From the NCBI GenBank assembly GCA_046292385.1, contig JBKBRF010000002.1, positions 64,001 to 128,000 of the forward strand: DNA of 64,000 nucleotides, read 5' to 3'. Positions 2,971 through 42,775 of this stretch are shown piece by piece; position 1 is the first letter of the stretch; each line of letters starts with the position of its first letter. Source of the stretch: Armatimonadota bacterium (GTDB lineage: Bacteria; Armatimonadota; SYMT01). Both the position numbers and the translations under genes were made by a program. The notes beneath the pieces are model-generated. The model saw nothing but the letters and a program-made list of their open reading frames with translations, ran no database searches and was not told where the DNA came from.

Positions 2971-3113
2971 AGCCGGCAGGTTCTCGCATCCGCTGCTCTT
3001 GAAGAAGGAGGGAAACAGCGCGCGAGCAGCTAAAAGATACTTAATAAATGGCGCTGCATAAGTGGCGGCAACCTGCTACACTGGAGTCAGTCGCCTTCCT
3101 CCCCCCACCCGCC

Positions 3114-4283
3114 ATGGCCCAGCGCTCTCCGATCCAGCCGGTCATCCTCAGCAAGATCAACGAGCGGCAGGTGCTCCGCACGCTGCTGCTGCAGGGCCCG
3201 CTCTCGCGCGCGGAGCTGGCGCGGCTGACCGGTATGACGCACCCCACCGTCTCCAAGGCGGTCGAGACGCTGCTCCTCGCCAACCTGCTGGAGGAGCGGG
3301 AGCCGGCGGCCAGCTTCGGACGTCCCGCGCGGAAGCTGGGGCTGGCGGCGCGGGCGCGGGTGCTGGGGCTGGTGATCGACGCCGGCTGGTGCCGGGTCGT
3401 CTCCGCGAGCCTGGACGGCCAGATCGACCCGGCGCTGACGCGGGAGTTCCCCACGCCGGAGAGTTACGAGGAGCTGATCGAGCGAACGGTCGAGTGTGCC
3501 GTGCCGCTGGTGGCGCTCGACGGCGTCACCACGCTCGGCATGGGGGTGAGCGTGCCGGGACTGGTCGACTACCGCCACCAGCGCAGCCTCCTCTCCCCGA
3601 ACGTGCCGATCACCAATGGCCGGTGCCCGGCGGCCGACCTGAAGAGCCGCCTCGGCATCGAGTGCGTGCTGATCCAGGAAGAGCACGCGCTCTGCCTGGC
3701 GGAGCGCTCCTTCGGGAGCGCGCGCGGCCTGGAAGACTTCGCGATCCTCGACGTCAGCACCGGGGTCGGTCTCGGCGTGATGAGCAGCGGACGTCTCCTC
3801 ACCGGCCGGAGCGGCCTGGCGGGCGAGATCGGCCACGTCACGGTAGAGCTGCGAGGCCGGCCGTGCGGCTGCGGCAACTGCGGCTGCCTGGAGACGGTCG
3901 CCTGCGACAGCGCCCTCGCCCGGATGGTCTCCGAGCGGCTCGGCCGGCGCATCTCGATCGACGAGATCCTGGCCCTGGCCGCCCGCGGCGAGCTCTCGCT
4001 GGAGCCGGAGCTGGAGCTGCTGAAGGAGTACCTCGCCGTCGGGATCGCCGCGGTGATCAACCTCTTCAACCCCGCCTCCCTCTTCGTACACGGCCGCCTC
4101 TTCGAGCTGGACGAGCGGATCTTTCCGGAAGTGGTGGAGCGCACGCGCGAGCGCGCCCTCTCCCCGTCTTTCGCCGACTGCGAGATCGTCCAGGCGCGCG
4201 GCAGCAAGCGGCAGGGAGCGGTCGCGGCGATGATCGAGCACCGCATCGACTCGCTTGTTCCTTCGGAGGTCGGGATTCTCTGA
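3114..4283 (+). CDS. ROK-family transcriptional regulator (XylR/NagC-like)
   Basis: N-terminal HTH (GPLSRAELARLTGMTHPTVSKAV), GEIGH and CGCGNCGCLE Zn motif; start taken as ATG 3114 rather than ORF-track 3048. Confidence 0.92.
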   Translation: MAQRSPIQPVILSKINERQVLRTLLLQGPLSRAELARLTGMTHPTVSKAVETLLLANLLEEREPAASFGRPARKLGLAARARVLGLVIDAGWCRVVSASLDGQIDPALTREFPTPESYEELIERTVECAVPLVALDGVTTLGMGVSVPGLVDYRHQRSLLSPNVPITNGRCPAADLKSRLGIECVLIQEEHALCLAERSFGSARGLEDFAILDVSTGVGLGVMSSGRLLTGRSGLAGEIGHVTVELRGRPCGCGNCGCLETVACDSALARMVSERLGRRISIDEILALAARGELSLEPELELLKEYLAVGIAAVINLFNPASLFVHGRLFELDERIFPEVVERTRERALSPSFADCEIVQARGSKRQGAVAAMIEHRIDSLVPSEVGIL

Positions 4284-4541
4284 CACAGAGGGACACAGAG
4301 GAACCAACAGAGGGGACACAGATTAGATCGAACTGCGCAGCACGGCCGCATCCATATTCCCGCCCCAGCCATCCTGAACGTCAGTGAAGGATCTCGGCAG
4401 CCGTGCTGGGACGGGAAACGCATTAACGTGGCGAGGGGCTGGTCTGCCGTGGATTAGCGGCCAGCGGGCAAGGAGCAGAGCCCAGAATGGCTGCCCTCTG
4501 TGGTCCTCTGTAAGTTCTTCTGTGTCCCTCTGTGTCGAAAA
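4282..4541. repeat. Palindromic intergenic element A1 (GACACAGAGGGACACAGA terminal inverted repeats) with an internal CATCCTGAACGTCAGTGAAGGATCTC module
   Basis: 4282-4299 is the exact reverse complement of 4519-4536; the internal ~85 bp recurs inverted at ~6810-6893. Confidence 0.85.
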
Positions 4542-4559
4542 GAAAGCTCGTAAAGAACG

Positions 4560-5600
4560 ATGAGCACCTGGGAGCAGCGCTGGCATCCGCTGCGTGAGGA
4601 ATGGGTGATCGTGGCGGCCCACCGGCAGAACCGCCCCTGGATCGGGGAGACGGTGGGGGGCGACGAGCGGCCGACGCCGTCGTACGTGCCGGACTGCTAC
4701 CTCTGCCCGGGCAACTCCCGGGTGAGCGGGGCGCGGAACCCGGAGTACGCGTCGACCTACGTCTTCGACAACGACCACCCGTGCGTCGGCCCGCTCGCCC
4801 CGCGCGACCTGCCGCAGCCGGCAGGGATCCTGCGGAGCCGGCCGGCGGAGGGGATCGCCCGCGTCGTCTGCTACAGCCCGCTGCACAACGTCACCCTGGC
4901 GGAGCTGGAGCCGCCGCAGATCGAGGAGCTGCTGCGGGTCTGGCAGGAGCAGTACCGGGAGCTGGGTGCGCGCGACGAGGTGGCGCACGTCCTCGTCTTC
5001 GAGAACAAGGGCGAGGTGGTCGGCGTCTCCAACCCGCACCCGCACTGCCAGATCTACGCCACCAACTTCGTCTTCAAGACGATCGAGACGGAGGCGAAAG
5101 CGGGCGAGCGCCACCTGGCGGAGACGGGCCGCGTGCTGTTCCAGGACGTGCTCCAGGCGGAGCGTCAGGACGGACGCCGCATCCTGGCGGAGAACGAGAC
5201 CGCCATCGCCTTCGTCCCCTACTTCGCGCGCTACGCCTACGAGGTCTACGTCGCGCCGAAGGCGACTCATCCGAGCCTGGCGGGCCTCTCCGGCGAGGAG
5301 CTGCGCGGCTTCTCCGAGGTGCTGAAACGGGTGCTGGTGCAATTCGACAACCTCTGGGGGATGCCGTTCCCCTACGTGATGGCGCTCCACCAGGCGCCGA
5401 CCGACGGCCGCAAGTACCCCGGCTTCCACTTCCACCTCGAGTTCCACCCGCCGCTGCGAAAGCCGAACCTGCTGAAGTACCTGGCCGGGCCCGAGATCGG
5501 CGGCGGAAGCTTCCTGGCCGACACGGCGCCGGAGGAGAAGGCGGCGGAGCTGCGCTCGCAGCCGGAGATCCACTACAAGCGGCGAGGACTGGAGGCGTGA
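4560..5600 (+). CDS. galT: Hexose/pentose-1-phosphate uridylyltransferase, GalT family
   Basis: [17 protein letters not shown] Zn site, FENKG and SNPHPHCQ catalytic motif. Confidence 0.93.
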
Positions 5601-6742
5601 TGGCGGACCGACAGGCCGACGCGCGGGCGCTGCTGGAGCCGATCCGGCGCATCCACGAGGAGATCCGCGCCGCCGTGGTCGAGGCGTGCGAGGCGGCGGA
5701 GCGGGAGCAGTCCGACCACCTCTCCGGCGTGGCCGAAGAGGCGGAAGGCGACACGATCTACGCGGTTGACCGCGTCAGCGAGGAGCGGCTCGTCACCCTC
5801 TTCGAGCGGGAGATCGCCCCGACCGCGCCGCTGGTCCTGATCGCGGAGGGCCTGCCCGGCGGGAAGATGGTCCTCCCCCGCGGCACCTCGGAGGAGGACG
5901 CGGTCTGGCGGGTGATCGTCGACCCGATCGACGGCACGCGCGGCGTGATGTACCAGAAGCGCTCCGCCTGGATCCTCACCGGCGTGGCGCCGAACCGCGG
6001 GCCGGAGACCGACCTGCAGGAGATCGTCCTGGCGATCCAGACCGAGATCCCGCTGGTGAAGCAGCACCTCTCCGACACCGCCTGGGCCCTCCGCGGCGAA
6101 GGAGTGGGGGCGGAGCGGTTCAACCGCCTGACCGGCGAGCGGACCCCGCTGCGGCTGCGGCCGTCCCGCGCCGCCACCATCGAGCACGGCTACGCCGGGC
6201 TGACCCGCTTCTTCCCCGGCGCCCGCGAGGAGCTGGCCGCGATCGACGAAGAGATCGTCCGCGGCGCGCTCGGCCCCGTCCGCCGCGGGAAGGCTTCCTG
6301 CTTCGAGGACCAGTACGCCTCCACCGGCGGCCAGCTTTTCGAGCTGATGTGCGGCCACGACCGCTTCCAGGCCGACCTGCGCCCCCTGATGGAGCCGCTC
6401 CTCGCCCGCCGCGGCGTGGCGCTCGGGATCTGCTGCCACCCGTACGACCTCTGCACGGAGCTGATCGCCCGCGAGCTGGGCGTCCTCGTCACCGACCCGT
6501 CCGGAGAGCCGGTGCGGGCCCGGCTCGACGTGGAGCCGGACGTGGCGTGGGTCGGCTACGCGAACGCCGCGATCCGCGAGCAGATCGAGCCGCTGCTGCG
6601 GGAGGCGCTCTCCCGGCGTTTTTCGACACAGAGGGACACAGAAGAACTTACAGAGGGAACACAGATGGAATTCCCCGGTGAACTGTCGTCGTCACCGCGT
6701 CCCCGCCGCAGTCATCCTGAACGGAGTGAAGGATCTACGTAA
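5600..6742 (+). CDS. Inositol monophosphatase-family sugar-1-phosphate phosphatase; last ~40 aa derived from a repeat element
   Basis: [23 protein letters not shown] (IMPase signature) and HPYD; ATG overlaps the galT stop (TGATG). Confidence 0.85.
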
Positions 6743-6983
6743 CTAAGCTTGTTCCGAAGCGTGAGACCACCCGGACGGCCGAAATCCGCTTGCAGTGCCC
6801 TCATCCCCTGCCTGCGTATCCCGTCCCGGAGCGGCTGCCGAGATCCTTCACTGACGTTCAGGATGACTGGGGTTGGGGTCGGATGCGGCCGCGGATTAAC
6901 GTTCCAACCAACAGCGAATACCCGAGCCGGTTCCAATTCTGTGTCCCCTCTGTCCGTTCTTCTGTGTCCGTCCGTGTCGAAAA
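6620..6983. repeat. Palindromic element A2, an inverted relative of A1 with a nested inverted GTCATCCTGAAC..GTGAAGGATCT pair
   Basis: 6620-6656 is the exact reverse complement of 4505-4541; degenerate right arm 6938-6983; inner pair at 6710-6736 and 6841-6868. Confidence 0.85.
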
Positions 6984-6986
6984 GAC

Positions 6987-8414
6987 ATGCTCTTCTCACC
7001 TGAACTACAGCCAGCCGTAGCGAGCGCCCGGGATACCCTGTTCCGGGCGGGGGAGCCGCTCGTCGTCACGCGGGCGCCGGGGCGGCTCGACGTGATGGGC
7101 GGGATTGCGGACTACTCCGGCTCCCTGGTGCTGCAGCTTCCGATCCGGGAGGCGACCGTCGCCGCGCTGCAGCGGGATCCGGAGCCGGTGCTGCAGATCG
7201 TCAGCCTGGGGGCGGAGGCGAACGGCCGCAGCGCGGCGTTTACCATGCCGCTGTCCGACTTCCTGGACGCTGCGGGGGAGCCGGTCTCCTACCACGCGGC
7301 GCGGCGCTACTTCGGCGCCGATCCCCGGCAGGCGTGGGCGGCCTACGCCGCGGGCGCGTTCCTGGTCTTGATGCGGGAGCGCGGCGCGCGCTTCCCGGGC
7401 GGCGCGCGCATCCTCATCGCTTCCGAAGTGCCGGAGGGGAAAGGGGTCAGCTCCTCGGCGGCGATCGAGGTCGCGGTGATGCAGGCGATCGCGGCGGCAT
7501 TCGAGATCCCGCTCTCGCCGCGCGACCTCGCCCTGCTCTGCCAGCGGGTGGAAAACCGGGTGGTCGGCGCGCCGTGCGGGGTGATGGACCAGATGACCTC
7601 CGCCTGTGGGGAGGCGGCTCACCTGCTGGCGCTGCTCTGCCAGCCGGCGGAGATCGAGGGGACGGTGGCCGTGCCGGAGGAGATGGAGCTCTGGGGAATC
7701 GACTCGGGCGTGCGCCACTCCGTCTCCGGCGCGGACTACGGCTCGGTGCGGGTCGGCGCGTTCATGGGCTATCGCATCCTGGCGGAGGCCTGCGGCTTCG
7801 CGGTGGAGCGCACGGAGCAGGAGCAGCTCGTCCGCGTTACCGATCCCCGCTGGCACGGCTACCTGGCCAACGTCACCCCCTCCGAGCTGGAGCAGCACCT
7901 GCTCCGCCACCTGCCGGAGCGGCTGACCGGCGAGGAATTCCTCGCCCGCTGCGGCGGGACCACCGACCCGGTGACGCGCATCGATCCGGACCGCTCCTAC
8001 GCGGTGCGGGTCCCCACCTGCCATCCCGTTTACGAGAGCCACCGGGTGCGGACCTTCGCGGAGCTGCTGCGCGGTGCCCCCGGCGAGCGGCGGCTGGAGC
8101 TGCTGGGCGAGCTGATGTTCCAGTCGCACGCCAGCTACTCCGCCTGCGGCCTCGGGTCGCAGGCAACCGACCGGCTGGTGGAGCTGGTCCGGGCGGCGGG
8201 ACCGGCGGCGGGGCTCTACGGCGCCAAGATCACCGGCGGCGGCAGCGGCGGCACCGTGGCGGTGCTGGGACGCCGCGGCGCGGAGCCGGCCGTGCGGGAG
8301 ATCGCGGAGCGGTTCGCGGGCGAGGCCGGTCACCGGCCCTATCTCTTCTCATCCTCGTCGCCCGGCGCGGCGGCGTTTGGATCTCTCACCCTGGAAAGGG
8401 AGCACCTGGTTTAG
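6987..8414 (+). CDS. GHMP sugar-1-kinase, plant L-arabinokinase (ARA1 kinase domain)-like
   Basis: RAPGRLDVMGGIADYSGSLVLQLPIREA, VPEGKGVSSSAA, GAPCGVMDQMTSACG, WGIDSGVRHSV and LYGAKITGGGSGG resemble the ARA1 type (from recall) rather than GalK (GEHTDY). Confidence 0.85.
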   Translation: MLFSPELQPAVASARDTLFRAGEPLVVTRAPGRLDVMGGIADYSGSLVLQLPIREATVAALQRDPEPVLQIVSLGAEANGRSAAFTMPLSDFLDAAGEPVSYHAARRYFGADPRQAWAAYAAGAFLVLMRERGARFPGGARILIASEVPEGKGVSSSAAIEVAVMQAIAAAFEIPLSPRDLALLCQRVENRVVGAPCGVMDQMTSACGEAAHLLALLCQPAEIEGTVAVPEEMELWGIDSGVRHSVSGADYGSVRVGAFMGYRILAEACGFAVERTEQEQLVRVTDPRWHGYLANVTPSELEQHLLRHLPERLTGEEFLARCGGTTDPVTRIDPDRSYAVRVPTCHPVYESHRVRTFAELLRGAPGERRLELLGELMFQSHASYSACGLGSQATDRLVELVRAAGPAAGLYGAKITGGGSGGTVAVLGRRGAEPAVREIAERFAGEAGHRPYLFSSSSPGAAAFGSLTLEREHLV

Positions 8415-8416
8415 CG

Positions 8417-9916
8417 ATGCAGCAAGCGACTCTCACCCTCGACCGGGACTTCGTCGTCTCGGAGGTCGACCCGCGCCTCTTCGGCGGGTTCGTGGAGCAC
8501 CTCGGGCGCCACATCTACACCGGCATCTACGAGCCGGAGCACCCGACGGCGGATGAGCACGGCTTCCGCCAGGACGTGGTGGAGCTGGTCCGCGAGCTGC
8601 GGATGCCGATCATGCGCTATCCCGGCGGCAACTTCGTCTCCGGCTACCGCTGGGAGGACGGCGTCGGGCCGCGGGAGCGGCGGCCGAAGCGGCTCGACCT
8701 CGCCTGGGGCGGCCTGGAGCCGAACCTGATCGGCACCAACGAGTTCGCCGACTGGTGCAAGCAGGTCGGCTCGGTCCCGATGCTCGCCGTCAACCTCGGC
8801 ACGCGTGGCCCGGAAGAGGCACAGGCGCTGGTGGAGTACTGCAACCACCCGGGCGGGACCTACTACAGCGACCTCCGCCGGGAGCACGGCTACCTGGAGC
8901 CGCACGGCATCAAGGTCTGGTGCCTGGGCAACGAGATGGACGGCCCCTGGCAGATGGTCCAGAAGACCGCCTGGGAGTACGGGCGGCTCGCCAACGAGTC
9001 GGCGAAGCTGATGAAGTGGACCGATCCGACGATCGAGACGGTCCTCTGCGGCTCCTCGGGCCGGACGATGAAGACGTTCGGGAGCTGGGAGTGGGAGTCG
9101 CTCCAGCAGGCGTACGAGACGACCGACTACCTCTCGCTCCACACCTACTACGGCAACACCACCGACGACACGGCGGCCTTCCTCGCCAAGCCGGAGGAGA
9201 TGGGCGACTTCATCCGCGAGGGGATCGCGCTCTGCGACGCCGTCCGTGCCCTGAAGCGGAGCAAGAAGTTCGTCCACCTGAGCTTCGACGAGTGGAACGT
9301 CTGGCGCCAGACCCGCGACCTGGTGACTCCGGGCGAGAAGTGGACCGCCGGCCGGCCCCAGCTCGAGCAGCAGTACAACATGGAAGACGCGCTGGTAGTC
9401 GGCGGCATGCTGATCACGCTGCTCACCCACGCGGACCGCGTGCGGATCGGGTGCATCGCGCAGGTGGTGAACGCGATCGCGCCGATCATGACGGAGCCGG
9501 CCGGACGCATCTGGAAGCAGCCGACCTACCACCCGTTCCTGGCCGCCTCACACCTGGGGCGCGGCACGGTGCTGCAGTCGCTGGTCCACGCGCCGGGCTA
9601 CGAGTGCAGCCACCGCGACGACGTGCCGGTGGTCCAGCTCGCCTCCGTGGCGGACGAGTACGGCCTGACGGTCTTCGCGGTGAACCGGGAGCCGAACGGG
9701 CAGCCGGTCCGGCTCTCCGCCGCCCTGCGGCGCTTCGACCGGATCCGCACGGCGCGGCACCAGGTGCTGACGCACGCCGACCTGAAGGCGACCAACTCCG
9801 CCGACGAGCCGGAGAAGGTGGCGCCGCGGATGGTCGACGCCCCCACCCTGGAGGGCGACGGCTTCACCGCCGAGCTGCCGCCTTACTCCTGGAACGTGCT
9901 TCGCTTTGAGCACTAG
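8417..9916 (+). CDS. Intracellular GH51 alpha-L-arabinofuranosidase (AbfA-like)
   Basis: FVEHLGR, RYPGGNFVSGYRWEDGVGP, WCLGNEMDGPWQ, SFDEWNVW; no signal peptide. Confidence 0.93.
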   Translation: MQQATLTLDRDFVVSEVDPRLFGGFVEHLGRHIYTGIYEPEHPTADEHGFRQDVVELVRELRMPIMRYPGGNFVSGYRWEDGVGPRERRPKRLDLAWGGLEPNLIGTNEFADWCKQVGSVPMLAVNLGTRGPEEAQALVEYCNHPGGTYYSDLRREHGYLEPHGIKVWCLGNEMDGPWQMVQKTAWEYGRLANESAKLMKWTDPTIETVLCGSSGRTMKTFGSWEWESLQQAYETTDYLSLHTYYGNTTDDTAAFLAKPEEMGDFIREGIALCDAVRALKRSKKFVHLSFDEWNVWRQTRDLVTPGEKWTAGRPQLEQQYNMEDALVVGGMLITLLTHADRVRIGCIAQVVNAIAPIMTEPAGRIWKQPTYHPFLAASHLGRGTVLQSLVHAPGYECSHRDDVPVVQLASVADEYGLTVFAVNREPNGQPVRLSAALRRFDRIRTARHQVLTHADLKATNSADEPEKVAPRMVDAPTLEGDGFTAELPPYSWNVLRFEH

Positions 9917-9917
9917 G

Positions 9918-10012
9918 CAGGGTTAGCAGGTTGGCAAGTTGCAGGTTGCCAGGTTCCGAACCGGCCTTCGGGCGATCGGCAACCTGCCAACCTGCAACCT
10001 GTGAACCTGAAA
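9918..10012. repeat. Inverted arrays of CAGGTTG / CAACCTG 7-8-mers
   Basis: (CAGGTT)n-like units 9918-9956 face (AACCTG)n-like units 9980-10010; a related array lies at ~61485-61517. Confidence 0.75.
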
Positions 10013-10055
10013 CAGTCAGCCCCGGACAGCAAACGCCGGCCTTCGGACCGAAAGC

Positions 10056-11381
10056 ATGCCAAACGCCCAGATCCACAACCGCATGACTCGCCGCAAGCTG
10101 CTCGCCTCCGTGCCGCTTGCGACCGCGGTGCTGGGCAGCACGGGCTGCGGCGTGGTGGGCGGGAAGACCCCGGTGCGGTTCTGGAACGGCTTCACCGGGC
10201 CGGACGGCCGTACCATGCTGCGCATGGTGAAGCGGTTCAACCAGGAGAACCCGGACGTCCACGTGGTGATGCAGCGGAGCGAGTGGGCCACCCACTACAA
10301 CAAGGTGTTCGTGGCCGGCCTCGGCAAGCGGGCTCCGGAGGTTTTCGTCGTCCACACCCGCACCATGGAGCGGTTCGTCCGCGCGGGGCTGGTCCGCCCG
10401 AACGACGACCTCGTCTCCGGCGCCGCGGCGGGAGAGCCGCTCGACGTCTCGGACCTCGACACCAACGTGTGGGAAGGGGTGGAGTTCGACGGCCGGCATT
10501 ACGCGTTGCCGATCGACGTCCACGCGATGGGTATGTACTTCAACCGCGCGCGCTTCCGCGAGGCGGGGCTGGTCGGCGCCGGGGGGGAGCCGGTCCTGCC
10601 GACCGACCGGGAGGGGCTGCTCGACGCCTGTCACCAGATGACGCGCCCCGCCCGCGGCGGCGAGCCGCCGCGGTGGGGGTACGTCTTCCACAACTGGGAG
10701 GGGCACCTCTACACCTTCATGCGCCAGTTCGGCGGCGAGTTCTTCACGTCGGACCACCGCCGGTGCCTGCTGCACAACCCGGAGAACGTCGCCGCGCTGC
10801 AGCTCTGCGTCGACATGATCCGCCGCTACCAGGTGGCGCCGCCCCCCGAGAACTTTGACTCCTGGATCGGGTTCCGGCAGGGGAAGGTTGGCATCACCTA
10901 CGAGGGGATCTACATGCTGGCCGACCTGCAGAAGCAACAGGACCTCGACTACGGCGGCGCGCCGGTGCCGCTGGTCGGCACCGAAAAGGCGGTCTTCGCC
11001 GACTCGCACAACCTCTGCCTCCGCGCCGACCTCGAAGGCCCGCAGTTGGAGGCGGCGTGGCGGTTCCTGCGGTTCCTCTCGGACCACAGCCTCGATTGGG
11101 CGGAGGGCGGGCAGATCCCGGTGCGGCAGAGCCTGCGCGCCACCCCGCGCTTTGCGAGCATGACGGTCCAGTCCGCCTTCGCGCGTCAGATCCCGTACGT
11201 CACCTACTTCCCCCGGATGACCTACATCCTGGAGTTCCTGCGAGAGTACAACCTGGCGATCGAGCTCGCCACGCGCGGGCGCGCCTCCGCGAGCGACGCG
11301 CTCCGGGGCGCGGAGGAGCGGGTGAACCGGATCATCCAGCGGGAGCGGTCCGCGCAGCGGACGGGTGAGGTGTGGGTATGA
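10056..11381 (+). CDS. Sugar ABC transporter substrate-binding lipoprotein
   Basis: TRRKLL twin-arginine-like signal, STGC lipobox, FWNGFTGPDG, YALPIDVH; alternative ATG 10083. Confidence 0.9.
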   Translation: MPNAQIHNRMTRRKLLASVPLATAVLGSTGCGVVGGKTPVRFWNGFTGPDGRTMLRMVKRFNQENPDVHVVMQRSEWATHYNKVFVAGLGKRAPEVFVVHTRTMERFVRAGLVRPNDDLVSGAAAGEPLDVSDLDTNVWEGVEFDGRHYALPIDVHAMGMYFNRARFREAGLVGAGGEPVLPTDREGLLDACHQMTRPARGGEPPRWGYVFHNWEGHLYTFMRQFGGEFFTSDHRRCLLHNPENVAALQLCVDMIRRYQVAPPPENFDSWIGFRQGKVGITYEGIYMLADLQKQQDLDYGGAPVPLVGTEKAVFADSHNLCLRADLEGPQLEAAWRFLRFLSDHSLDWAEGGQIPVRQSLRATPRFASMTVQSAFARQIPYVTYFPRMTYILEFLREYNLAIELATRGRASASDALRGAEERVNRIIQRERSAQRTGEVWV

Positions 11382-12250
11382 GCCGGGCGCGTGGGCGTGA
11401 GAACGCCTCCAAATACCTCTTCGCGCTGCCGTTCCTGGTGCTCTTCGGCGGCTTCGTGGCGCTGCCGCTCGTCTACGGCCTGGTGCTCAGCCTCTTCCGC
11501 TGGGACATGCTCTCCGCCCTGCCGCCCCGCTTCATCGGGCTCGACAACTACCGCGAGGCGCTCGGCGACCGCTACTTCTGGATGGCGCTCGGCGCCACCG
11601 GCCGGTTCGTCGGCATGGCGGTCCCGCTCACGGTCTGCGTGGCGCTCGCGGTGGCGGTCGGCATCAACGGCGTCCCCTCCCGCTACCAGGCGTTCTACCG
11701 CGCCGCCTACTACCTGCCGACCGTCATCACCATTACGGTGGCCGGCCTGCTCTGGCGCTGGTTCTACAACAGCGAGTTCGGGCTGTTCAACGCTTACCTG
11801 GGCCAGGTCGGGATGAAGGTGCCCTGGATCACCGATCCGCGGTGGGCGATGCTCTCCCTGGTGCTGATGACGGTCTGGTGGACGGTCGGCGGCCCCATGG
11901 TGGCGCTGCTCGCCGGCCTGCAGAACATCCCGGCGGCGTACTACGAGGCGGCGGCACTCGACGGCGCCACCGGCTGGAACCGCTTCCGCCACGTCACGCT
12001 GCCGCTCCTCCGGCCGGTGCTGCTCTTCGTGGTGGTAATGAACGTGATCGGCGCGTTCCAGGTGTTCGGGCAGGTCTACATCATCACCCGCGGCGGCCCG
12101 GAGATGAGCACGCGGACGATGGTCCAGTACATCTACGAGACCGCCTTCAACAACTACCGGATGGGGTACGCCGCGGCGCTGAGCTGGCTGCTCTTTGCGG
12201 TGATCGCGCTTTTCTCGCTGCTGCAGTTTCGGTTGATGAGGGAGCGATGA
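11378..12250 (+). CDS. Carbohydrate ABC permease (MalF-like)
   Basis: FIGLDNY, LAGLQNIP..YYEAAALDGA EAA loop, MGYAAA; ATGA overlap with the binding-protein gene. Confidence 0.93.
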   Translation: MSRARGRENASKYLFALPFLVLFGGFVALPLVYGLVLSLFRWDMLSALPPRFIGLDNYREALGDRYFWMALGATGRFVGMAVPLTVCVALAVAVGINGVPSRYQAFYRAAYYLPTVITITVAGLLWRWFYNSEFGLFNAYLGQVGMKVPWITDPRWAMLSLVLMTVWWTVGGPMVALLAGLQNIPAAYYEAAALDGATGWNRFRHVTLPLLRPVLLFVVVMNVIGAFQVFGQVYIITRGGPEMSTRTMVQYIYETAFNNYRMGYAAALSWLLFAVIALFSLLQFRLMRER

Positions 12251-12321
12251 GCTTCGTTTTCTTTCCAGAGCTGAAGGACGTGGTGTTCTGCTGCTCGTCG
12301 CACAGCAGCAAACATCCCGAG

Positions 12322-12903
12322 CGTCCGACCCCGCGCCCTTGTGCCGGGAGGCAGCCCTCCCGCGGCGGGTGCCCTCCGCGGCCTTTTCACGCTCCGGCTT
12401 CGCCTCCGCTAGCAGGCCGCTCCGGGAGTGCGCTCCGGTTCGCTCTTCCCGCGTCACAGACGGGATCACCCCAACAGCCTGGTTCACGGGCTGCCTCCCG
12501 GCCCTTCGAGCGAACCCCCCTACGCCCAGGGGGGTTCACAGGTGCCGCCCTTCGGGCGCCCTGGTTTCTGGCTGCGGCGCAACCGGTACCGCGCTTCATC
12601 CTGCGATCAGACATCCCAGACGCTATGGGGCCAGAAACTATCGGAGCCTGGAGGCGCTGCCGCAGGCAGAGCCGGAGGGATCCCTTTGTGACCACCCCTA
12701 GCGGGGGTGGTTGCTTGAGCCGGGCGGGGCGGCCCGTGAATCGCGGTGCCGGTTCAGCCGCAGCTTGCGAACGCGGAGCGCAGCCTTCCGCCGCGCACGC
12801 CCGGACCAGCCCGCTAACGGAGCGGAGCGGAGTGTGAAAGGGCTGAGGAAGGGCCACACACGCGGGAGGGCCGCCCCGCCCGGTGAGGGCACGGGGTGGA
12901 ACC
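12322..12903. repeat. Long degenerate inverted repeat (~220 bp arms) in a 740 bp intra-operon gap
   Basis: Left arm ~12322-12543 aligns to the reverse complement of ~12685-12903 (e.g. CCCTCCCGCG/CGCGGGAGGG, TTTCACGCTCCG/CGGAGTGTGAAA, TTCACGGGC/GCCCGTGAA). Confidence 0.75.
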
Positions 12904-12988
12904 CCGGTGAGAAGCCGGTCCCGCCCAGCAAAGACCGCCTACGACAACAGCCTGAACCAAGAACCCCATCTCACCGAGGAGAACCCGG

Positions 12989-15445
12989 ATGCGCCGAAGA
13001 CGCTCTCACCTCACGTCATCCTTAATCGTCACCTCCGCCCTGCTCGCCCTCACCGCCTGGCAGGCGCACCACGGCCAGGCGCAGGAGGCGCCCGCGGCGG
13101 CGGAGCTGGTGGTGCACGCCGACCGGCCCGGGCCGCGGGTCAGCCCGCTGATGTACGGGGTCTTCTTCGAGGAGATCAACCACGCGGGCGACGGCGGGAT
13201 CTACGCGGAGCTGGTGCGGAACCGCTCGTTCGAGGACGGCACCGCGCCCGAGGCATGGAGCGCGGTGGCGCGGGAGGGTGGGCAGCCGGTGCTGGCGCTC
13301 GATACCGACCGGCCGCTGAACGCGGCGCAGGGGAAGTCGCTGCGTGTGGAGCTGCGCGGCCCGGGCGCGGCCGGGGTCGCGAACGACGGCTACTGGGGCG
13401 TGCCGGTGCGGAAGGGGGCGGAGTACCGGCTCTCGCTCTTCGCGCGCGCCTCCTCCCGGCTGCGGACGCCGCTGGTCGCCTCGCTGGAGGGGAAGGACGG
13501 CCGGGTCTACGCCCGCAGAGAGCTGGGCGGGCTGAAGGAGGAGTGGACGCGCCTGACCGGCACGCTGCGCGCGAGCGAGAGCGACCCCGCCGCGCGGCTG
13601 GTCCTCACCACGCCGGGCACCGGGACACTGTGGCTCGACGTCGTCTCCCTCTTCCCGGCGGACACCTGGAAGGGGCGGGCGAACGGGCTGCGGCGGGACC
13701 TGGCCGAGAAGGTGGCAGGGCTCGCCCCCGCGTTCGTGCGGTTCCCGGGCGGCTGCTTCGTGGAGGGCTCCCGGCTGGAGAACGCGGTCCGCTGGAAGCG
13801 GACGATCGGCCCGATCGAGGAGCGGCCGGGTCACCCGAACGCGAAGTGGGGTTACCGCTCCAGCGACGGCCTCGGCTACCACGAGTACCTGCAGTGGTGC
13901 GAGGACCTCGGCGCGGAGCCGATCTTCATCATTAACTGCGGGATGGCGTGCGGCTTCGACGGCGGCGAGTGCGTGCCGCTGGAGGAGCTGGGCGAGTGGA
14001 TCCAGGACGCGCTCGACGCGATCGAGTACGCGAACGGTCCGGTCACCAGCCGCTGGGGCGCCGTGCGGGCGAAGAACGGGCATCCGAAGCCGTTCAACAT
14101 GAAGCTCCTGGGGGTCGGCAACGAGAACGGCTGGGGCCAGTACCTCCCGCAGTATGAGGAGCGGTACGCGCGCTTCTACGACGCGATCAAGAAGCGCTAC
14201 CCGGAGATGCAGCTCATCGCCACCACGCCGGTCCGCTCCCGGCCGATGGACATCCTGGACGACCACTACTACAACAACCCGCAGTGGTTCTGGGCGAACA
14301 CCGGCCTCTACGACCGCCGCGACCGCAAGGGGCCGAAGATTTACGTCGGCGAGTTCGCCGTCACGCAGAACGCCGGCACCGGCAACCTGGCGGCGGCGGT
14401 GGCGGAGGCGGCGTTCATGACCGGCCTGGAGCGGAACGCCGACCTGGTGCAGATGGCCTCCTACGCGCCGCTATTCGTGAACGTGCGGGACCGCAAGTGG
14501 AACCCGGACGCGATCCCGTTCGACACCAGCCGCAGCTACGGCACGCCGTCGTACTACGTGCAGAAGCTGTTCGCGGAGAACCGGCCCGACGTGGTGCTAA
14601 ACAGCGAGCTCTCTCTGCCGCCGGCGACGGTAGAGAAAGGCGGGATCGGCCTCGGCACCTGGCTCACGCAGGCGGAGTTCAAGGACGTCGAGGTGATCCG
14701 GGACGGCAAGACGGTCTACTCTTCCCGCTTCCAGGATGACGCGCCGGAGTGGCGGCGGCAGGGCGGGGAGTGGTCGGTGCGGAACGGCGCCCTCCGGCAG
14801 AGCGCCGCGGGCGAGGACCGGCGGATCGTGCTGGCGGAGCCGTCGCTGGCGGACGCCTCCGACTACACCCTCCGCCTGAAGGCGCGCAAGCTGGGCGGCG
14901 CGGAAGGCTTCCTGATCATGTTCCGGAACCGCAGCCGCGGCGACTTCTACTGGTGGAACATCGGCGGCTGGCAGAACCGGGAGCACGCGATCGAAAAGGG
15001 GGTCGGCGGCGGAAAGGTGACCCTGGGGCCGCGCGTGCCGGGCAGCGTGGAGACGGGCCGCTGGTACGACATCCGGATCGAGCTGCAGGGTCCGCGGGTC
15101 CGCTGCTACCTCGACGGCAAGCTGATCCACGACGAGATCGATCGCGGCACGCCGGACCTGGCGGCGGTGGCGGGACGGGTCGACCGCACCGGCGAGATCA
15201 TCCTGAAGGTGGCGAACGGCGCGGAGACCGCCCGCCCGATGACGCTGCGGCTGAACGGCGCCGGCTTGCTGCGGGGGACCGGCACCGCCACCGTGCTCAC
15301 CTCCGGCTCGATGGCGGACGAGAACTCGCTCGACCAGCCGGAGCGGGTGGCGCCGCGCACGGTGCCGGTGGAGGGGGTGAGCTCCCGGTTCACCTACACC
15401 TTCCCGCCGCGCTCCGTGACGGTGCTGCGGCTGAAGAAGCGCTGA
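12989..15445 (+). CDS. Secreted GH51 alpha-L-arabinofuranosidase with an inserted beta-sandwich domain
   Basis: Signal peptide; YGVFFEEINHAGDGGIYAELVRNRSFE, RFPGGCFVEG, GVGNEN, YVGEFA, VQMASYAPLF. Confidence 0.93.
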   Translation: MRRRRSHLTSSLIVTSALLALTAWQAHHGQAQEAPAAAELVVHADRPGPRVSPLMYGVFFEEINHAGDGGIYAELVRNRSFEDGTAPEAWSAVAREGGQPVLALDTDRPLNAAQGKSLRVELRGPGAAGVANDGYWGVPVRKGAEYRLSLFARASSRLRTPLVASLEGKDGRVYARRELGGLKEEWTRLTGTLRASESDPAARLVLTTPGTGTLWLDVVSLFPADTWKGRANGLRRDLAEKVAGLAPAFVRFPGGCFVEGSRLENAVRWKRTIGPIEERPGHPNAKWGYRSSDGLGYHEYLQWCEDLGAEPIFIINCGMACGFDGGECVPLEELGEWIQDALDAIEYANGPVTSRWGAVRAKNGHPKPFNMKLLGVGNENGWGQYLPQYEERYARFYDAIKKRYPEMQLIATTPVRSRPMDILDDHYYNNPQWFWANTGLYDRRDRKGPKIYVGEFAVTQNAGTGNLAAAVAEAAFMTGLERNADLVQMASYAPLFVNVRDRKWNPDAIPFDTSRSYGTPSYYVQKLFAENRPDVVLNSELSLPPATVEKGGIGLGTWLTQAEFKDVEVIRDGKTVYSSRFQDDAPEWRRQGGEWSVRNGALRQSAAGEDRRIVLAEPSLADASDYTLRLKARKLGGAEGFLIMFRNRSRGDFYWWNIGGWQNREHAIEKGVGGGKVTLGPRVPGSVETGRWYDIRIELQGPRVRCYLDGKLIHDEIDRGTPDLAAVAGRVDRTGEIILKVANGAETARPMTLRLNGAGLLRGTGTATVLTSGSMADENSLDQPERVAPRTVPVEGVSSRFTYTFPPRSVTVLRLKKR

Positions 15446-15458
15446 GAGGCGGTTCCGG

Positions 15459-16322
15459 ATGCAGACGGTGATCCCACGCAAGCGGACCGGAAGGCGGCCG
15501 GGGACCCTGAGCTGGGCCCTCGGTCCGCTCCTGCTCGCGCTTGGCGCGCTGCTCTTCCTGGCGCCGGTGGCGATCATGCTGCTGACCGCGCTCAAGCCGG
15601 ACGCGGAGATCGTCCACTTCCGCAGCATCTGGCCGGAAGACGCGACGCTGGCCAACTTCCGGGAGATCCTGGGCAGCGCGGAGGAGATCCCGATCTTCCG
15701 CTGGCTGGGGAACAGCCTGCTGATCTCCTCCAGCGTCGCCGCGCTCGTGGTGACGGTCAGCTCGCTGGCGGCCTACGCCTTCGCGCGGCTCGACCTGCCC
15801 GGGAAGCGGTGGCTCTTCCCGCTGGTGGTCGGCACGCTGATGGTGCCCGGCCAGGTGCTGCTGGTGCCGGTCTACATGATCCTCAACCAGCTCGGCTGGA
15901 TCGATACGCCGCTGGCGCTGATCGTACCCGCGGGCGGGAGCGCCTTCGGCTTCTTCATGCTGCACCAGTTCTTCCTCGGCATCCCGCGGGAGCTGGAGGA
16001 GGCGTCCGAGCTCGACGGCTGCTCCCGCCTCGGCACCTTCCTGAACGTGGTGCTCCCGCTCTCCCGGCCCGCCCTGGCGGCGCTGGCAATCTTCGTCTTC
16101 GTCGGCTCCTGGAACGACTTCCTCGGCCCGCTGGTCTTCCTCGACTCGGTGGAGCGGTACACGCTGCCGGTCGGCGTCGCCCTCTTCCAGAGCTCCTACG
16201 CTACGGAATACGGCCTCACCCTCGCCGCCGCCGTGATCTGCACCTTCCCGGCCGTCGCCGCGTTCCTGCTCTTCCAGCGCCAGATCATCCAGGGGATCGC
16301 GGTGACGGGGCTGAAGGAGTGA
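15459..16322 (+). CDS. Carbohydrate ABC permease (MalG-like)
   Basis: NSLLIS, AAYAFARL, IPRELEEASELDG, WNDFLGPLV. Confidence 0.93.
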   Translation: MQTVIPRKRTGRRPGTLSWALGPLLLALGALLFLAPVAIMLLTALKPDAEIVHFRSIWPEDATLANFREILGSAEEIPIFRWLGNSLLISSSVAALVVTVSSLAAYAFARLDLPGKRWLFPLVVGTLMVPGQVLLVPVYMILNQLGWIDTPLALIVPAGGSAFGFFMLHQFFLGIPRELEEASELDGCSRLGTFLNVVLPLSRPALAALAIFVFVGSWNDFLGPLVFLDSVERYTLPVGVALFQSSYATEYGLTLAAAVICTFPAVAAFLLFQRQIIQGIAVTGLKE

Positions 16323-16344
16323 TCAGCCAAGGGAACCACCCGAA

Positions 16345-16675
16345 CTGAAAGGGGATAGGGGGATGGGGAACGGAGATGATGGGGATGGGCAGCCAACCAA
16401 ACTTAGTTCCTACTGCTCTGAAAACAGCCTTCCAGGGCGTAGGAGACAGGCTGACGCTCCGGCACGGCCTAACCCCCCAACCCCCTTCCCTAAAGTGGAA
16501 GGGGGAGCAGGCTAGCTTTCCACCGATAGCTTCCCTCTCCTCTCAGGAGAGGGACCGAGGGTGAGGCCCCGTGAGAGGGCTTCAGCCCCCCGCGCATAGG
16601 CGGCCCGTCCACGGTCAAGGAACGGTCGGACTTTAGCCTTTTGCCTTTAGCCTTTTGCCTTTTGCCTTTTGCCTC
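16345..16675. repeat. Composite intergenic repeat: GGGGAT-rich head, two CCC..GGG hairpin modules, (GCCTTT[AT])n heptamer tail
   Basis: Head and tail match 62840-62900 and 63117-63148; heptamer array at 16631-16674. Confidence 0.75.
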
Positions 16676-16721
16676 TTACGTCTCCTCATCTCCTTTTCTT
16701 ACACTTTTGCGGAGGCCCGGA

Positions 16722-17825
16722 ATGATCCACCATAGACGCCCCAGCTTTCGCATCGCTGTCGCCATGGCGGTGGGGGTGGGGCTGCTGTTTGGGGCGGCGG
16801 GGCTGACGCGGGCGCAGCGGGCGCCGGAGCCGGCGGCGGGGGCGATCCGGCACGTGCACGACCCGTGCCTGATCAAGCAGGGCGACGCCTACTATCTCTT
16901 CTCCACCGGCCACGGGATTCCGATCCGGAAGTCGAAGGATCTGGTTCGCTGGGAGCTGGTGGGACGCGTCTTCAAAGAAGACCTGCCCACGTGGGCCAGG
17001 GAGGAGATCCCCGGCAGCGTCTTCCCCTGGGCGCCGGACATCGCCTACCTCAACGGGCGGTACCATCTCTACTACTCCGTCTCCTCGTTCGGGAAGAACC
17101 GCTCGCTGATCGCGCTCGCGACGAACAAGACGCTCGACCCGCAGAGCCCGGACTACGCCTGGAAGGACGAAGGGAAGGTGTTCGAGTCGCACCCCGGCGA
17201 CGACCACAACGCGATCGACTCGAACGTGCTCCTCACGAAGCAGAGCGACCGGGAGCGGCTGGCGTTCACCTTCGGCTCGTTCTGGTCCGGCCTCAAGCTG
17301 ATCGAGATGATGCCCACCACCGGCAAGCTGCCGGACAGCGGGGCGCCCGTAATCCGGATCGCCAGCCGCCCCCGCCCGGGCGCCGTGGAGGCGCCGTTCC
17401 TGATCGAGCGGGACGGCTACCACTACCTCTTCGTGTCGTTCGACTTCTGCTGCCGGGGCGTGCGGAGCACCTATAACATCCGGGTCGGGCGCTCGAAAAA
17501 GCTGGAGGGGCCGTACCTCGATCGGGAGGGCAAGTCGCTGCTGGAAGAAGGCGGGACGCCGGTGCTGGCGACAAAAGGGCGGGAGATCGGACCCGGGCAC
17601 TGCGCGGTGCTGCGGGAGCCGGGCCGCGACCTGCTGGTCTACCACTTCTACGACGGCATGGCGAACGGCATCCCCACGCTGCAGATCCGCCCGCTGAGCT
17701 GGGACGCGGACGGCTGGCCGACGCCCGGCGAGCCGCTCGTGCCGCTGCCCGATCCGGGCGTGAAGCCGGACGACGCGCCCGCCCGGCCGGACGACGGCTG
17801 CGCCGGCTGCGGGTCGGAAGACTGA
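16722..17825 (+). CDS. Secreted GH43 endo-1,5-alpha-L-arabinanase
   Basis: HVHDP, WAPD, YHLYYSVSSFGKNRS, NAIDSN, FGSFWSG, VEAPF, DFCCRG, GPGH; signal peptide; ORF-track start at 16641 lies in the heptamer repeat. Confidence 0.9.
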   Translation: MIHHRRPSFRIAVAMAVGVGLLFGAAGLTRAQRAPEPAAGAIRHVHDPCLIKQGDAYYLFSTGHGIPIRKSKDLVRWELVGRVFKEDLPTWAREEIPGSVFPWAPDIAYLNGRYHLYYSVSSFGKNRSLIALATNKTLDPQSPDYAWKDEGKVFESHPGDDHNAIDSNVLLTKQSDRERLAFTFGSFWSGLKLIEMMPTTGKLPDSGAPVIRIASRPRPGAVEAPFLIERDGYHYLFVSFDFCCRGVRSTYNIRVGRSKKLEGPYLDREGKSLLEEGGTPVLATKGREIGPGHCAVLREPGRDLLVYHFYDGMANGIPTLQIRPLSWDADGWPTPGEPLVPLPDPGVKPDDAPARPDDGCAGCGSED

Positions 17826-17856
17826 TCGGAACGCGAGAGGAAGAAGGAAGCGACAG

Positions 17857-18828
17857 ATGATCCTGGTGACCGGCGGCGCCGGCTACATCGGCAGCCACTA
17901 CGTTCTCTACGAGCGGGCCCGCGGGAGCGAGGTCGTGGTGCTCGACAACATGGTCTACGGCCACCCGGAGGCGGTGCTCGACGCGCCGCTGGTGGTGGGC
18001 GAGCTGGGCGACCGCGCCACGCTCGACCGCGTCTTCACGGAGTACCAGGTCGACGCGGTGGTCCACTTCGCCGCGTTCGCCTACGTGGGCGAATCGGTCA
18101 CGAAGCCGGAGAAGTACTACCACAACAACGTGGTCGCCACCCTCGGCCTGCTCGACGCGATGCGGGACCACGGGATCCGGCACTTCATCTTCTCGTCGTC
18201 GTGCGCCACCTACGGCAACCCGCAGTACGTCCCGATGGACGAGCAGCACCCGCAGGACCCGATCAACCCGTACGGGGAGAGCAAGTTCATCTGCGAGAAG
18301 ATCATGAAGGCGTATGACCGCGCCCACGGTCTCCGCTTCGCGGCGCTGCGCTACTTCAACGCCGCCGGCTGCGATCCGGAAGGCCGCATCGGCGAGAGCC
18401 ACGATCCGGAGACCCACCTGATCCCGCTGATCCTGCAGGCGGCCCAGGGGAAGCGGGACGCGATCACCGTCTTCGGCACCGACTACGACACGCCGGACGG
18501 CACCTGCATCCGGGACTACATCCACGTCCTCGACCTGGCCCAGGCGCACAGCCTCGCGCTGGAGCGGCTGCGCGGCGGCGGCGAGAGCGGCTTCTTCAAC
18601 CTGGGGACGGAGACGGGTCACTCCGTCCGCGAGGTGATCCGCGTCTGCGAAGAGGTCTCCGGCCGCCCCGTCCCGGTGCAGGAAGGCCCCCGCCGGGAAG
18701 GCGACCCGCCGCGACTGGTCGCCAGCGCAGCCAAGGCCCGCGAAGTGCTCGGCTGGCGCCCGCAGTACCTCGACCTGCGGGAGACGATCGCCACCGCCTG
18801 GAAGTGGGAGGAGAGCCGGCGGTACTGA
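17857..18828 (+). CDS. galE: UDP-sugar 4-epimerase, GalE family (Uxe/MUR4-like; candidate UDP-arabinose/UDP-xylose 4-epimerase)
   Basis: VTGGAGYIGSH, HFAAFAYVGES, FSSSCATYG, PINPYGESK (YxxxK), LRYFNAAG, DGTCIRDYIHV. Confidence 0.92.
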   Translation: MILVTGGAGYIGSHYVLYERARGSEVVVLDNMVYGHPEAVLDAPLVVGELGDRATLDRVFTEYQVDAVVHFAAFAYVGESVTKPEKYYHNNVVATLGLLDAMRDHGIRHFIFSSSCATYGNPQYVPMDEQHPQDPINPYGESKFICEKIMKAYDRAHGLRFAALRYFNAAGCDPEGRIGESHDPETHLIPLILQAAQGKRDAITVFGTDYDTPDGTCIRDYIHVLDLAQAHSLALERLRGGGESGFFNLGTETGHSVREVIRVCEEVSGRPVPVQEGPRREGDPPRLVASAAKAREVLGWRPQYLDLRETIATAWKWEESRRY

Positions 18829-25806: not shown

Positions 25807-26115
25807 GCGGAGAATTCGACGGTAGAGCGGCAGGCAGGCGAGGACCCGTTCCCCGGGACGGCGAGGGGTTCCTGCGTCAAGACCTTGGGTTGCCAGCCGG
25901 GAAAGGTGGCGGGGCTCCGTGCAGCGAGCGGCGCGATGCTCCGGGTCCCGGAGCAAGTTGCGGAGCCTGCCTGTCGATTGCTCATCCGGACGCTATCATA
26001 AAAGCTGGCTCTCCCCCGATGTGGGAGTGTGCTTTATCCTCCGACGACATTTATCTGCCGCGTGACTCACTTCTGCGTCGTGGCGTCGGGATGTTTCTAG
26101 AGCAAAGGAGCGGCT

Positions 26116-30311: not shown

Positions 30312-30363
30312 CGCGGCACTCCGGGAGGAGCCGGTGGCTGCGCCGGCTCCTCCCAATATCGGA

Positions 30364-31125
<762 letters not shown>

Positions 31126-31314
31126 TCCGAAAACTACTCCTATTCGGGGATCGCTGAGCGATGATCCGCGCCAGGCCGTAAGCTCGGCCGGCTGGCGCTC
31201 GCAAACCGGAGCAGCGCCCCGCGCTCTACCTTGGTGACCGATGAAGCCATCGGGTGCGCCGAGCGGGATCTTATCACCTCTTAACTCGCGATGGCCGGTC
31301 CGGGTGGAATATTT

Positions 31315-42741: not shown

Positions 42742-42775
42742 GTCGAAGCTAGTGGTGGGTCCGGGTACTTCTGGT

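Follow-up and report, generated by a model that had tools for sequence, protein, structure and literature searches.

How does a bacterium that encodes a set of arabinan-degrading enzymes, and whose genome has no match to araA or araD, make use of L-arabinose? This question is raised by a locus in a 64,000-nucleotide (nt) stretch of the genome of an Armatimonadota bacterium (assembly GCA_046292385.1, contig JBKBRF010000002.1, positions 64,001 to 128,000), hereafter called the window. L-arabinose is among the most abundant plant-derived pentoses, and textbooks describe its use by bacteria through the AraBAD isomerase route or through oxidative routes. We propose that the locus probably serves both to take up and degrade arabinan and to run a Leloir-like route, in which L-arabinose would be converted to D-xylose through uridine diphosphate (UDP) sugars. 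The proposal is based on the protein families encoded, on a kinase of the plant ARA1 clade, on conserved synteny, on natural gene fusions, and on co-occurrence with xylA and without araA. What we infer from these data are the substrates, the way in which the flux runs and, most of all, the phosphatase step.

Layout of the locus and the proposed route

The window has about 70% G+C, and its genes were called by G+C content at third codon positions (GC3) and then searched with Pfam and NCBIfam models. The results showed that positions 3048-18828 form a single locus with all genes on the + strand. An earlier note on this DNA had described one co-oriented arabinan locus with a ROK regulator, GalT, a protein of the inositol monophosphatase (IMPase) family, a GHMP kinase, two enzymes of glycoside hydrolase (GH) family 51, a GH43 enzyme, an importer and GalE. 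All of these were recovered from the GC3 frames and the two sets of models; the start of the locus, given there as 3114, had to be moved, since the ROK frame opens at 3048. The features of the locus are as follows.

3048..4283, + strand: ROK-family regulator with an N-terminal MarR-type helix-turn-helix domain, the likely regulator of the locus (Pfam ROK 149.5 bits, MarR_2 31.1 bits)
4282..4536, no strand: element resembling a miniature inverted-repeat transposable element (MITE), between the regulator and galT (32-nt terminal inverted repeats 4282-4313 / 4505-4536, 91% complementary)
4560..5600, + strand: GalT, class-I hexose-1-phosphate uridylyltransferase (TIGR00209 286.5 bits vs cut-off 102.1)
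5600..6742, + strand: putative divergent phosphatase of the IMPase/fructose-1,6-bisphosphatase (FBPase) fold (PF00459 31.2 bits vs cut-off 27, residues 24-121 only)
6620..6983, no strand: second MITE-like element, between the phosphatase and the kinase (46-nt terminal inverted repeats 6620-6665 / 6938-6983, 89% complementary)
6987..8414, + strand: ARA1-type GHMP sugar-1-kinase, predicted L-arabinose 1-kinase (under the GalK cut-offs; similar to ARA1)
8417..9916, + strand: GH51 alpha-L-arabinofuranosidase, ArfA type, probably intracellular (NF051901 724.3 bits vs cut-off 625)
10056..11381, + strand: ATP-binding cassette (ABC) solute-binding protein, family 1 (PF01547 82.1 bits)
11372..12250, + strand: ABC permease 1 (PF00528 55.7 bits)
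12254..12988, no strand: 735-bp non-coding gap (no frame with coding GC3)
12989..15445, + strand: large secreted CBM4_9-GH51 arabinofuranosidase (ASD1_dom 179.2, Alpha-L-AF_C 110.8, CBM_4_9 29.1, PF06439 37.8 bits)
15459..16322, + strand: ABC permease 2 (PF00528 68.5 bits)
16641..17825, + strand: GH43 endo-1,5-alpha-L-arabinanase-like enzyme (PF04616 148.2 bits; AbnA model 275.7 bits, under its cut-off of 480)
17857..18828, + strand: GalE, UDP-glucose 4-epimerase (TIGR01179 436.4 bits vs cut-off 262.3)

According to the proposed route, the secreted GH43 and GH51 enzymes would cut arabinan, the arabino-oligosaccharides would be imported by the ABC system, and L-arabinose would be released by the cytoplasmic GH51 enzyme. 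The ARA1-type kinase would convert L-arabinose to L-arabinose-1-phosphate (L-Ara-1-P), which GalT would exchange with UDP-xylose (UDP-Xyl) to give UDP-L-arabinose (UDP-L-Ara) and xylose-1-phosphate (Xyl-1-P); UDP-glucose (UDP-Glc) could prime the cycle. GalE would turn UDP-L-Ara into UDP-Xyl and so return it to the cycle, the IMPase/FBPase-fold enzyme would release free D-xylose from Xyl-1-P, and XylA and XylB, which are encoded elsewhere in the genome, would lead D-xylose into the pentose phosphate pathway.

The gene arrangement was examined at the junctions. The galT stop overlaps the phosphatase start in a TGATG at 5598-5602, as expected from the translational coupling claimed for this pair, and the ATG of the first GH51 gene (8417-9916) lies 2 nt past the kinase stop. 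No AraA, FGGY or class-II-aldolase domain was found among the window's open reading frames (ORFs) scanned, in agreement with the reported lack of araA, araB and araD from the window. The claim of an ABC importer held in part: a solute-binding protein and two permeases are present, and no ABC ATPase gene was found in the locus.

The four predicted enzymes

We compared the window kinase with galactokinase models and found that it scored under the cut-off of all five GalK models (TIGR00131, 145.8 bits vs 226.65), while the canonical GalK of the same genome scored 365 bits. Its fold is galactokinase-like, with Z 36.3 and a root-mean-square deviation (rmsd) of 2.8 A over 343 residues to 1s4e for a predicted model with a predicted local distance difference test (pLDDT) score of 82. 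The best 120 homologues of similar length shared 64-78% identity with it and bore the names 'L-arabinokinase', 'galactokinase' or 'GHMP kinase' where their sources gave one. A search among longer proteins returned 592 at E <= 0.001; among the best 120 of these, after six GalT-kinase fusions (ranks 1-5 and 10), nearly all were plant proteins. The plant matches listed shared 48-54% identity over 94-99% of the kinase, and many of them were named L-arabinokinase or ARA1, with one from Arabidopsis.

When aligned, the kinase and six plant ARA1s were 52-56% identical, against 29% for the kinase and the GalK of the same genome. The motif GGIADYSG was identical in the window kinase, the six plant ARA1s, two fusions and three bacterial homologues, in place of GEHTDY in the genome's GalK, and all three kinase motifs that had been quoted earlier are present in the window protein and match the plant enzymes letter for letter. 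The N-terminal glycosyltransferase-like domain of plant ARA1 is not found in the window kinase (475 amino acids, GHMP domains only). In a quick maximum-likelihood tree of 41 rows, which has no reliable root, one clade (SH-aLRT 99) united 10 plant ARA1s with 3 fusions and 23 bacterial cassette kinases; GalK and two bacterial kinases of 42% identity fell outside it on long branches. These results indicate that the protein is a predicted ARA1-type kinase and not a galactokinase, and the resemblance to ARA1 over GalK that had been noted from the motifs was thereby upheld. ARA1 phosphorylates L-arabinopyranose at C1, according to the available text of PMC5897480.

In the same tree, the plant ARA1 kinase domains, from streptophyte algae to angiosperms, formed one clade (support 100) that joined the cassette kinases of bacteria in an unresolved polytomy, and one may ask whether their origin was shared or involved transfer. 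A structure named 'AbGHMP' (PDB 9ULX/9ULY) has been solved for a protein very closely homologous to the kinase (645.6 bits over residues 18-470), indicating that the family is under study by others; no publication on AbGHMP, 9ULX or 9ULY was found in literature searches.

The window GalT is a regular member of its family, in which the HPH motif, the Zn-binding Cys pair, the His ligand (H115 equivalent) and the Gln align with E. coli GalT 1hxq. It shared 60-80% identity with the cassette GalTs of other phyla, and cassette GalTs were only about 35-48% identical to the other GalT of this genome. Six natural fusions (P0241-P0245 and P0250; about 833-850 amino acids) join GalT domains to an ARA1-type kinase domain that is 57-60% identical to the window kinase, and they provide a Rosetta-stone link between the first two predicted steps. 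One of the fusions is named from a Gemmataceae metagenome-assembled genome. GalT would be expected to act on L-Ara-1-P with UDP-Xyl or UDP-Glc, leaving Xyl-1-P or glucose-1-phosphate (Glc-1-P). The sugar loop of GalT was considered as a marker of pentose specificity and rejected: the cassette loop, ending in (N/S)FL, is conserved, but the genome's own second GalT has a loop of similar type.

The epimerase had been likened to Uxe/MUR4-type enzymes, and this likeness was not sustained. It scored as a plain GalE equivalog (TIGR01179, 436.4 vs 262.3 bits), and its best solved relative was the UDP-glucose 4-epimerase 8wxk (418.5 bits). Nothing pointed to a specialised Uxe/MUR4-type enzyme, so that the epimerisation of pentoses would have to come from a side activity of GalE. 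In plants, UGE1 and UGE3 interconvert UDP-Xyl and UDP-L-Ara and not all UGEs do so, as stated in the accessible portion of PMC5897480; the window GalE may also interconvert these two sugars.

The homologues of the phosphatase are 70-88% identical across phyla, and E61, D108-P-I-D111-G-T113 (DPIDGT) and D283 (YD motif) were invariant in 24 sequences. The acidic, DPIDGT and YD motifs were the only parts that aligned to solved IMPases in a profile search, and phmmer against PDB sequences gave no match at E <= 0.01. A language-model protein atlas grouped the protein with 'inositol monophosphatase family' clusters. Foldseek with a poor model (mean pLDDT 58), built on an alignment low in diversity (70-83% identity), returned FBPases and SAL1 as its top 50 (E about 1e-9, TM 0.36-0.56, rmsd 7-11 A). 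Judged from these motifs and matches, the protein belongs to a putative far-diverged family of the IMPase/FBPase superfamily, about 340 amino acids long. It would act on alpha-D-xylose-1-phosphate, and this step is the weakest link of the route.

Conservation of the gene set and its genomic context

The conservation of the module was assessed in a one-genome-per-species scan, which gave at least 600 stretches; a relative was encoded in at least 585 of them. The best 80 loci were examined, with neighbour genes located by tblastn with the window proteins; they came from Pyrinomonadaceae, Blastocatellia, other Acidobacteriota, Caldilineaceae, Anaerolineae, Dictyobacter aurantiacus, Planctomycetota, Gemmatimonadota, Latescibacterota, KSB1 and others. 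Upstream genes were counted in the 69 loci with at least 2.5 kb upstream, and GalE in the 66 loci with at least 1.3 kb downstream. A same-strand GalT of at least 55% identity ended within 2.5 kb upstream of the kinase in 55/69 loci, the phosphatase lay immediately upstream of the kinase in 44/69, and 10/69 had neither. In 30/66 loci a GalE began no more than 400 bp downstream of the kinase.

Genes for pentose use were found at the same loci. xylA or xylB was present in 25/80 loci, and in 19/40 among those with at least 8 kb on both sides; for GH51 or GH43 the counts were 28/80 and 17/40. In five loci (L064, L074, L077, L085 and L088) xylA directly followed GalE. Two loci illustrate the arrangement: L040 has the order GH43, GH51, GalT, phosphatase, kinase, GalE, ABC sugar importer, XylB (568 vs 380 bits), XylA (527 vs 447), and L064 the order GH51, GalT, phosphatase, kinase, GalE, XylA (540 bits), GH127.

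We then examined gene profiles in whole genomes. Among 251 genomes sampled across Acidobacteriota only 11 carried the kinase, too few for a contrast, so sampling was moved to family level. The family chosen was that of L040, Pyrinomonadaceae, with 151 genomes at least 85% complete. The kinase was found in 33/151 and araA in 0/151. The phosphatase was found in 37/151, comprising 33/33 kinase carriers vs 4/118 non-carriers, and class-I xylA in 51/151, comprising 30/33 carriers vs 21/118 non-carriers (Fisher p = 9e-15, a value that overstates the contrast because related genomes are not independent). All four genomes with the phosphatase and no kinase also carry xylA. When unpublished non-carriers were left out, the contrasts were 30/33 vs 18/115 for xylA (minus G469, G480 and G577) and 33/33 vs 2/116 for the phosphatase (minus G480 and G577). 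araA was likewise found in 0/5 carriers from other phyla. The co-occurrence of the genes with each other and with arabinofuranosidase genes, which had been predicted, was thus borne out in loci and genome samples, and the linkage to xylA and xylB goes beyond that prediction.

The phylum of the window gave a more mixed result. In a sample of 201 genomes, with the kinase called at E <= 1e-80, a kinase match was found in 48, a full araA in 28 and both in 3, and many of the 48 kinases fall into a diverged group that lies outside the ARA1 clade. Class-I or class-II xylA was present in 30/48 kinase-positive genomes vs 52/153 others. The four genomes with a kinase match at E <= 1e-200 (G000, G002, G016 and G061) all had xylA and a close phosphatase (4/4) and none had araA (0/4). 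The kinase was found in two of the 8 genomes of the window's order.

The rest of the source genome was searched for the known routes. In this assembly, which is 98.45% complete, no araA match was found, also by tblastn with the araA of another genome, and no araD match was found by tblastn at E <= 1e-5 with another genome's araD as query. The genome's xylA (568 bits vs 447) and xylB (593 bits vs 380) are both encoded outside the locus. A lack of araA and araD from the genome was thus supported, with araB present only as the orphan gene described below. Contig C5 carries a canonical galK (365 bits) with a further galT beside it, and C1 encodes another GalE, so that the set in the window is distinct from this genome's galactose set. 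At 40780-43796 of the window, on the - strand, a YjhG/YagF D-xylonate dehydratase gene (1168.8 bits vs 808) adjoins a gene for an HpcH/HpaI-family aldolase; the pair lies 22 kb from the arabinan locus and could represent a Dahms-type oxidative branch for xylose.

Other features of the locus and its surroundings were also recorded. The ROK regulator matched the NagC and Mlc models at scores well under their cut-offs. The two MITE-like elements (4282-4536 and 6620-6983) are copies of one element, have terminal inverted repeats made of GACACAGAGG units and sit in intergenic spaces of the operon. The last ~40 codons of the phosphatase, from 6620, run into the second element, which replaced the last few codons of the gene and so accounts for a 40-residue tail not present in 23 homologues. 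The order of the transport genes is unusual, the two ABC permease genes being split by the 735-bp gap and the large GH51 gene. The gap itself (12254-12988) contains two perfect 15-16-nt inverted repeats, spaced by about 130 nt, and had no match at E <= 1 in an Rfam search. Directly upstream of the ROK regulator, at 302-2970, lie genes for a LuxE-like acyl-protein synthetase and a LuxC-like acyl-CoA reductase. PF06439, the 3-keto-disaccharide hydrolase domain, occurs three times in the window, at 26101-26772, at 63164-64000 and inserted in the large GH51 enzyme (12989-15445).

Alternative readings and known systems

Several observations, given here and in the next paragraph, weigh against the proposed route. 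The activity of all four proteins is predicted only, and the route spends one ATP more than AraBAD. The genome encodes an orphan bona fide ribulokinase, araB (TIGR01234, 692.5 bits vs 583.25), on contig C7 of G000 at 29996-31645 (locus L126, 7994-9652), with hemA, hemC, a GAF/HATPase protein gene, rsmE and aroQ as neighbours. In the window's phylum the anticorrelation with araA is weak (3/48 vs 25/153, odds ratio 0.34, p = 0.096, with genomes that are not independent), and 18/48 kinase-positive genomes lack xylA; most of those kinases fall into the diverged group beyond the ARA1 clade. The GalE is generic, and the cassette copy was the sole strong GalE in 4/5 other carrier genomes searched, which argues against a dedicated Uxe; the fifth had no GalE at E <= 1e-70. 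In addition, the operon contains two MITE-like insertions, and the element at 6620-6983 alters the phosphatase C-terminus.

Further points concern the phosphatase. A 73%-identical copy in genome G010 lies tail-to-tail with araD-araB-araA (locus L112, G010:C143, 8130-15459, where it is convergent with araD-araB-(PDDEXK)-ADH-araA-FeADH). G010 lacks an ARA1-like kinase at E <= 1e-20, and its only TIGR00209 matches are weaker ones of 115.5 and 85.4 bits (cut-off 102.1); a second genome of its genus likewise has no such kinase at that threshold and weaker galT matches. GalT abuts the kinase with no phosphatase between them in 12/69 loci; of five such genomes, four encode a member of the phosphatase family elsewhere and one has none. 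In the window's phylum, the broader phosphatase family had no more than a loose link to the kinase, being present in 17/48 kinase-positive genomes vs 32/153 others. Diverged pairs, in which the kinase is 42% and the phosphatase 47-50% identical, occur without a neighbouring GalT, and one genome with such a pair has only weaker TIGR00209 matches, of 108.9 and 93.3 bits. A 47%-identical relative also occurs in an unrelated-looking cluster (L116 and L117), beside a 365-amino-acid GHMP kinase and two nucleotidyltransferase genes. The G010 copy, the 12/69 loci, the diverged pairs, the L116/L117 relative and the failure of any solved IMPase to match the phosphatase sequence at E <= 0.01 suit a reading in which the kinase, GalT and GalE act as proposed, the phosphatase acts on another pentose phosphate or non-hydrolytically, and Xyl-1-P is handled by another enzyme; the guard phosphatase AraL of Bacillus subtilis offers a model for such a role. 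We consider this reading unlikely, because in Pyrinomonadaceae the phosphatase is present in every kinase carrier (33/33 vs 4/118), its place between galT and the kinase is fixed, with a start/stop overlap, it retains the catalytic motifs of a metal-dependent phosphomonoesterase, and the cycle would have no other obvious exit for Xyl-1-P. The phosphatase family is consistently tied to anomeric sugar kinases; at the present locus its substrate would be Xyl-1-P.

Two other readings give the module a different purpose. The kinase and GalT, perhaps with GalE, might make UDP-L-Ara or UDP-Xyl for a glycan or exopolysaccharide, with the phosphatase bleeding off toxic sugar-1-phosphate. The nearest characterised relatives, the plant ARA1s, do act in salvage (available text of PMC5897480 and PMC12281597), bacterial UDP-xylose salvage through a promiscuous GalK has been published (PMC11267548, as far as its available text goes), and a cassette GalE that is the sole strong GalE in 4/5 carriers must also serve biosynthesis. 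Such salvage appears improbable to us all the same: the module lies inside glycoside-hydrolase/importer operons, often with xylA or xylB directly after it, xylA was found in 30/33 carriers vs 21/118 in the Pyrinomonadaceae sample, no glycosyltransferase genes were seen in the annotated loci, and a conserved, translationally coupled phosphatase (33/33 carriers) is hard to square with a safety valve. The remaining reading takes the genes for an ordinary galactose Leloir set, tied to arabinan or arabinogalactan degradation by shared regulation alone. It could draw on GalT and GalE scores above the equivalog cut-offs, on the 'galactokinase' label that some sources give to kinase homologues, and on the galactokinase-like fold. 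This reading is very improbable, given that the kinase fails every GalK cut-off and falls in the ARA1 clade, that a canonical galK-galT pair is present elsewhere in the genome, and that the phosphatase and the linkage to xylA and xylB would be left unexplained.

The L116/L117 cluster was also described in its own right. It was found in two genomes of one genus and contains genes for the 365-amino-acid GalK-like GHMP kinase, two NTP_transferase proteins, a ferritin-like protein, the IMPase-fold relative, a Diphthami_syn_2 protein and a URO-D-like protein; the 47%-identical IMPase-fold family member was present in 11/11 genomes of that genus.

The Leloir-like conversion of L-arabinose to D-xylose thus remains the reading that we prefer for this locus. 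To the wider claim we give about even chances, namely that a further, undescribed bacterial L-arabinose route exists in at least 585 species-level genomes (Acidobacteriota, Chloroflexota, Planctomycetota, Gemmatimonadota, Latescibacterota and others), in which re-used GalT and GalE would invert C4 on UDP-sugars, a new FBPase/IMPase-fold family would serve as dedicated alpha-D-xylose-1-phosphate phosphatase, and plant ARA1 would share its origin with the module. The earlier note knew of no description of such a bacterial route, and likewise no description of bacterial Leloir-type arabinose catabolism was found in the full-text literature, with subscription journals and bioRxiv supplements outside its coverage; the matches obtained instead were plant and protist arabinokinases and bacterial UDP-xylose salvage via a promiscuous GalK. 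If the claim is true, many soil and sediment bacteria that lack araA and are scored as arabinose non-users would use arabinose, automated annotations as 'galactokinase/GalT/GalE/inositol monophosphatase' would be corrected, and an orphan phosphatase family of very high conservation would acquire a function. It would also provide a four-gene cassette to feed arabinose into the xylose metabolism of engineered strains, natural enzymes for the synthesis of L-Ara-1-P, UDP-L-Ara and UDP-Xyl, and a bacterial context for the origin of plant ARA1.

We compared the proposed module with known systems. Plant L-arabinose salvage (ARA1, UDP-sugar pyrophosphorylase, and UGE1/UGE3 or MUR4) resembles it in a kinase domain of 52-56% identity with the same signature motifs and in the interconversion of UDP-L-Ara and UDP-Xyl by GalE-family enzymes (PMC5897480, available text). 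It differs in that plant ARA1 has an extra N-terminal domain (about 870-1060 amino acids in total, with PF13528 in many, vs 475 in the window kinase), and that a uridine triphosphate (UTP)-dependent pyrophosphorylase takes the place of GalT in an anabolic pathway with no dedicated phosphatase and no link to XylA/XylB. UDP-xylose salvage in Solitalea canadensis, by a promiscuous GalK and a Glc-1-P uridylyltransferase, also combines anomeric phosphorylation of a pentose with subsequent UDP activation; in the available text of PMC11267548 this anabolic route begins with D-xylose, relies on a UTP-dependent pyrophosphorylase and is seen as promiscuity of galactose enzymes. AraBAD (isomerase, ribulokinase and 4-epimerase) shares the start at L-arabinose and the end at D-xylulose-5-phosphate, whereas C4 would here be inverted on a UDP-sugar and not on ribulose-5-phosphate, at the cost of the additional ATP.

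Hydrolysis of glycosyl 1-phosphates by metal-dependent members of the IMPase superfamily is known from plant VTC4, an L-galactose-1-phosphate phosphatase, and from mammalian IMPase, which acts on galactose-1-phosphate. The window phosphatase shares their DPxDGT and (W/Y)D motifs and differs in being far diverged, with a partial Pfam match and no solved relative at E <= 0.01. Re-use of a Leloir-type trio with a different anomeric kinase is likewise known, from the galacto-N-biose/lacto-N-biose (GNB/LNB) pathway of bifidobacteria (NahK, GalT-type LnpC and GalE-type LnpD), which differs from the window module in acting on N-acetylhexosamines, in having a kinase of another family and in lacking a phosphatase step. 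With the Leloir pathway itself, as in the E. coli gal operon, the module shares an anomeric kinase, a UDP-sugar:sugar-1-phosphate uridylyltransferase and a 4-epimerase, and its GalT and GalE are true members of these families. It differs in that the window kinase is no GalK equivalog, the proposed sugars are pentoses and the module lies among arabinan-degrading genes; as Xyl-1-P would not be usable by phosphoglucomutase (Pgm), the phosphatase together with XylA/XylB would replace Pgm.

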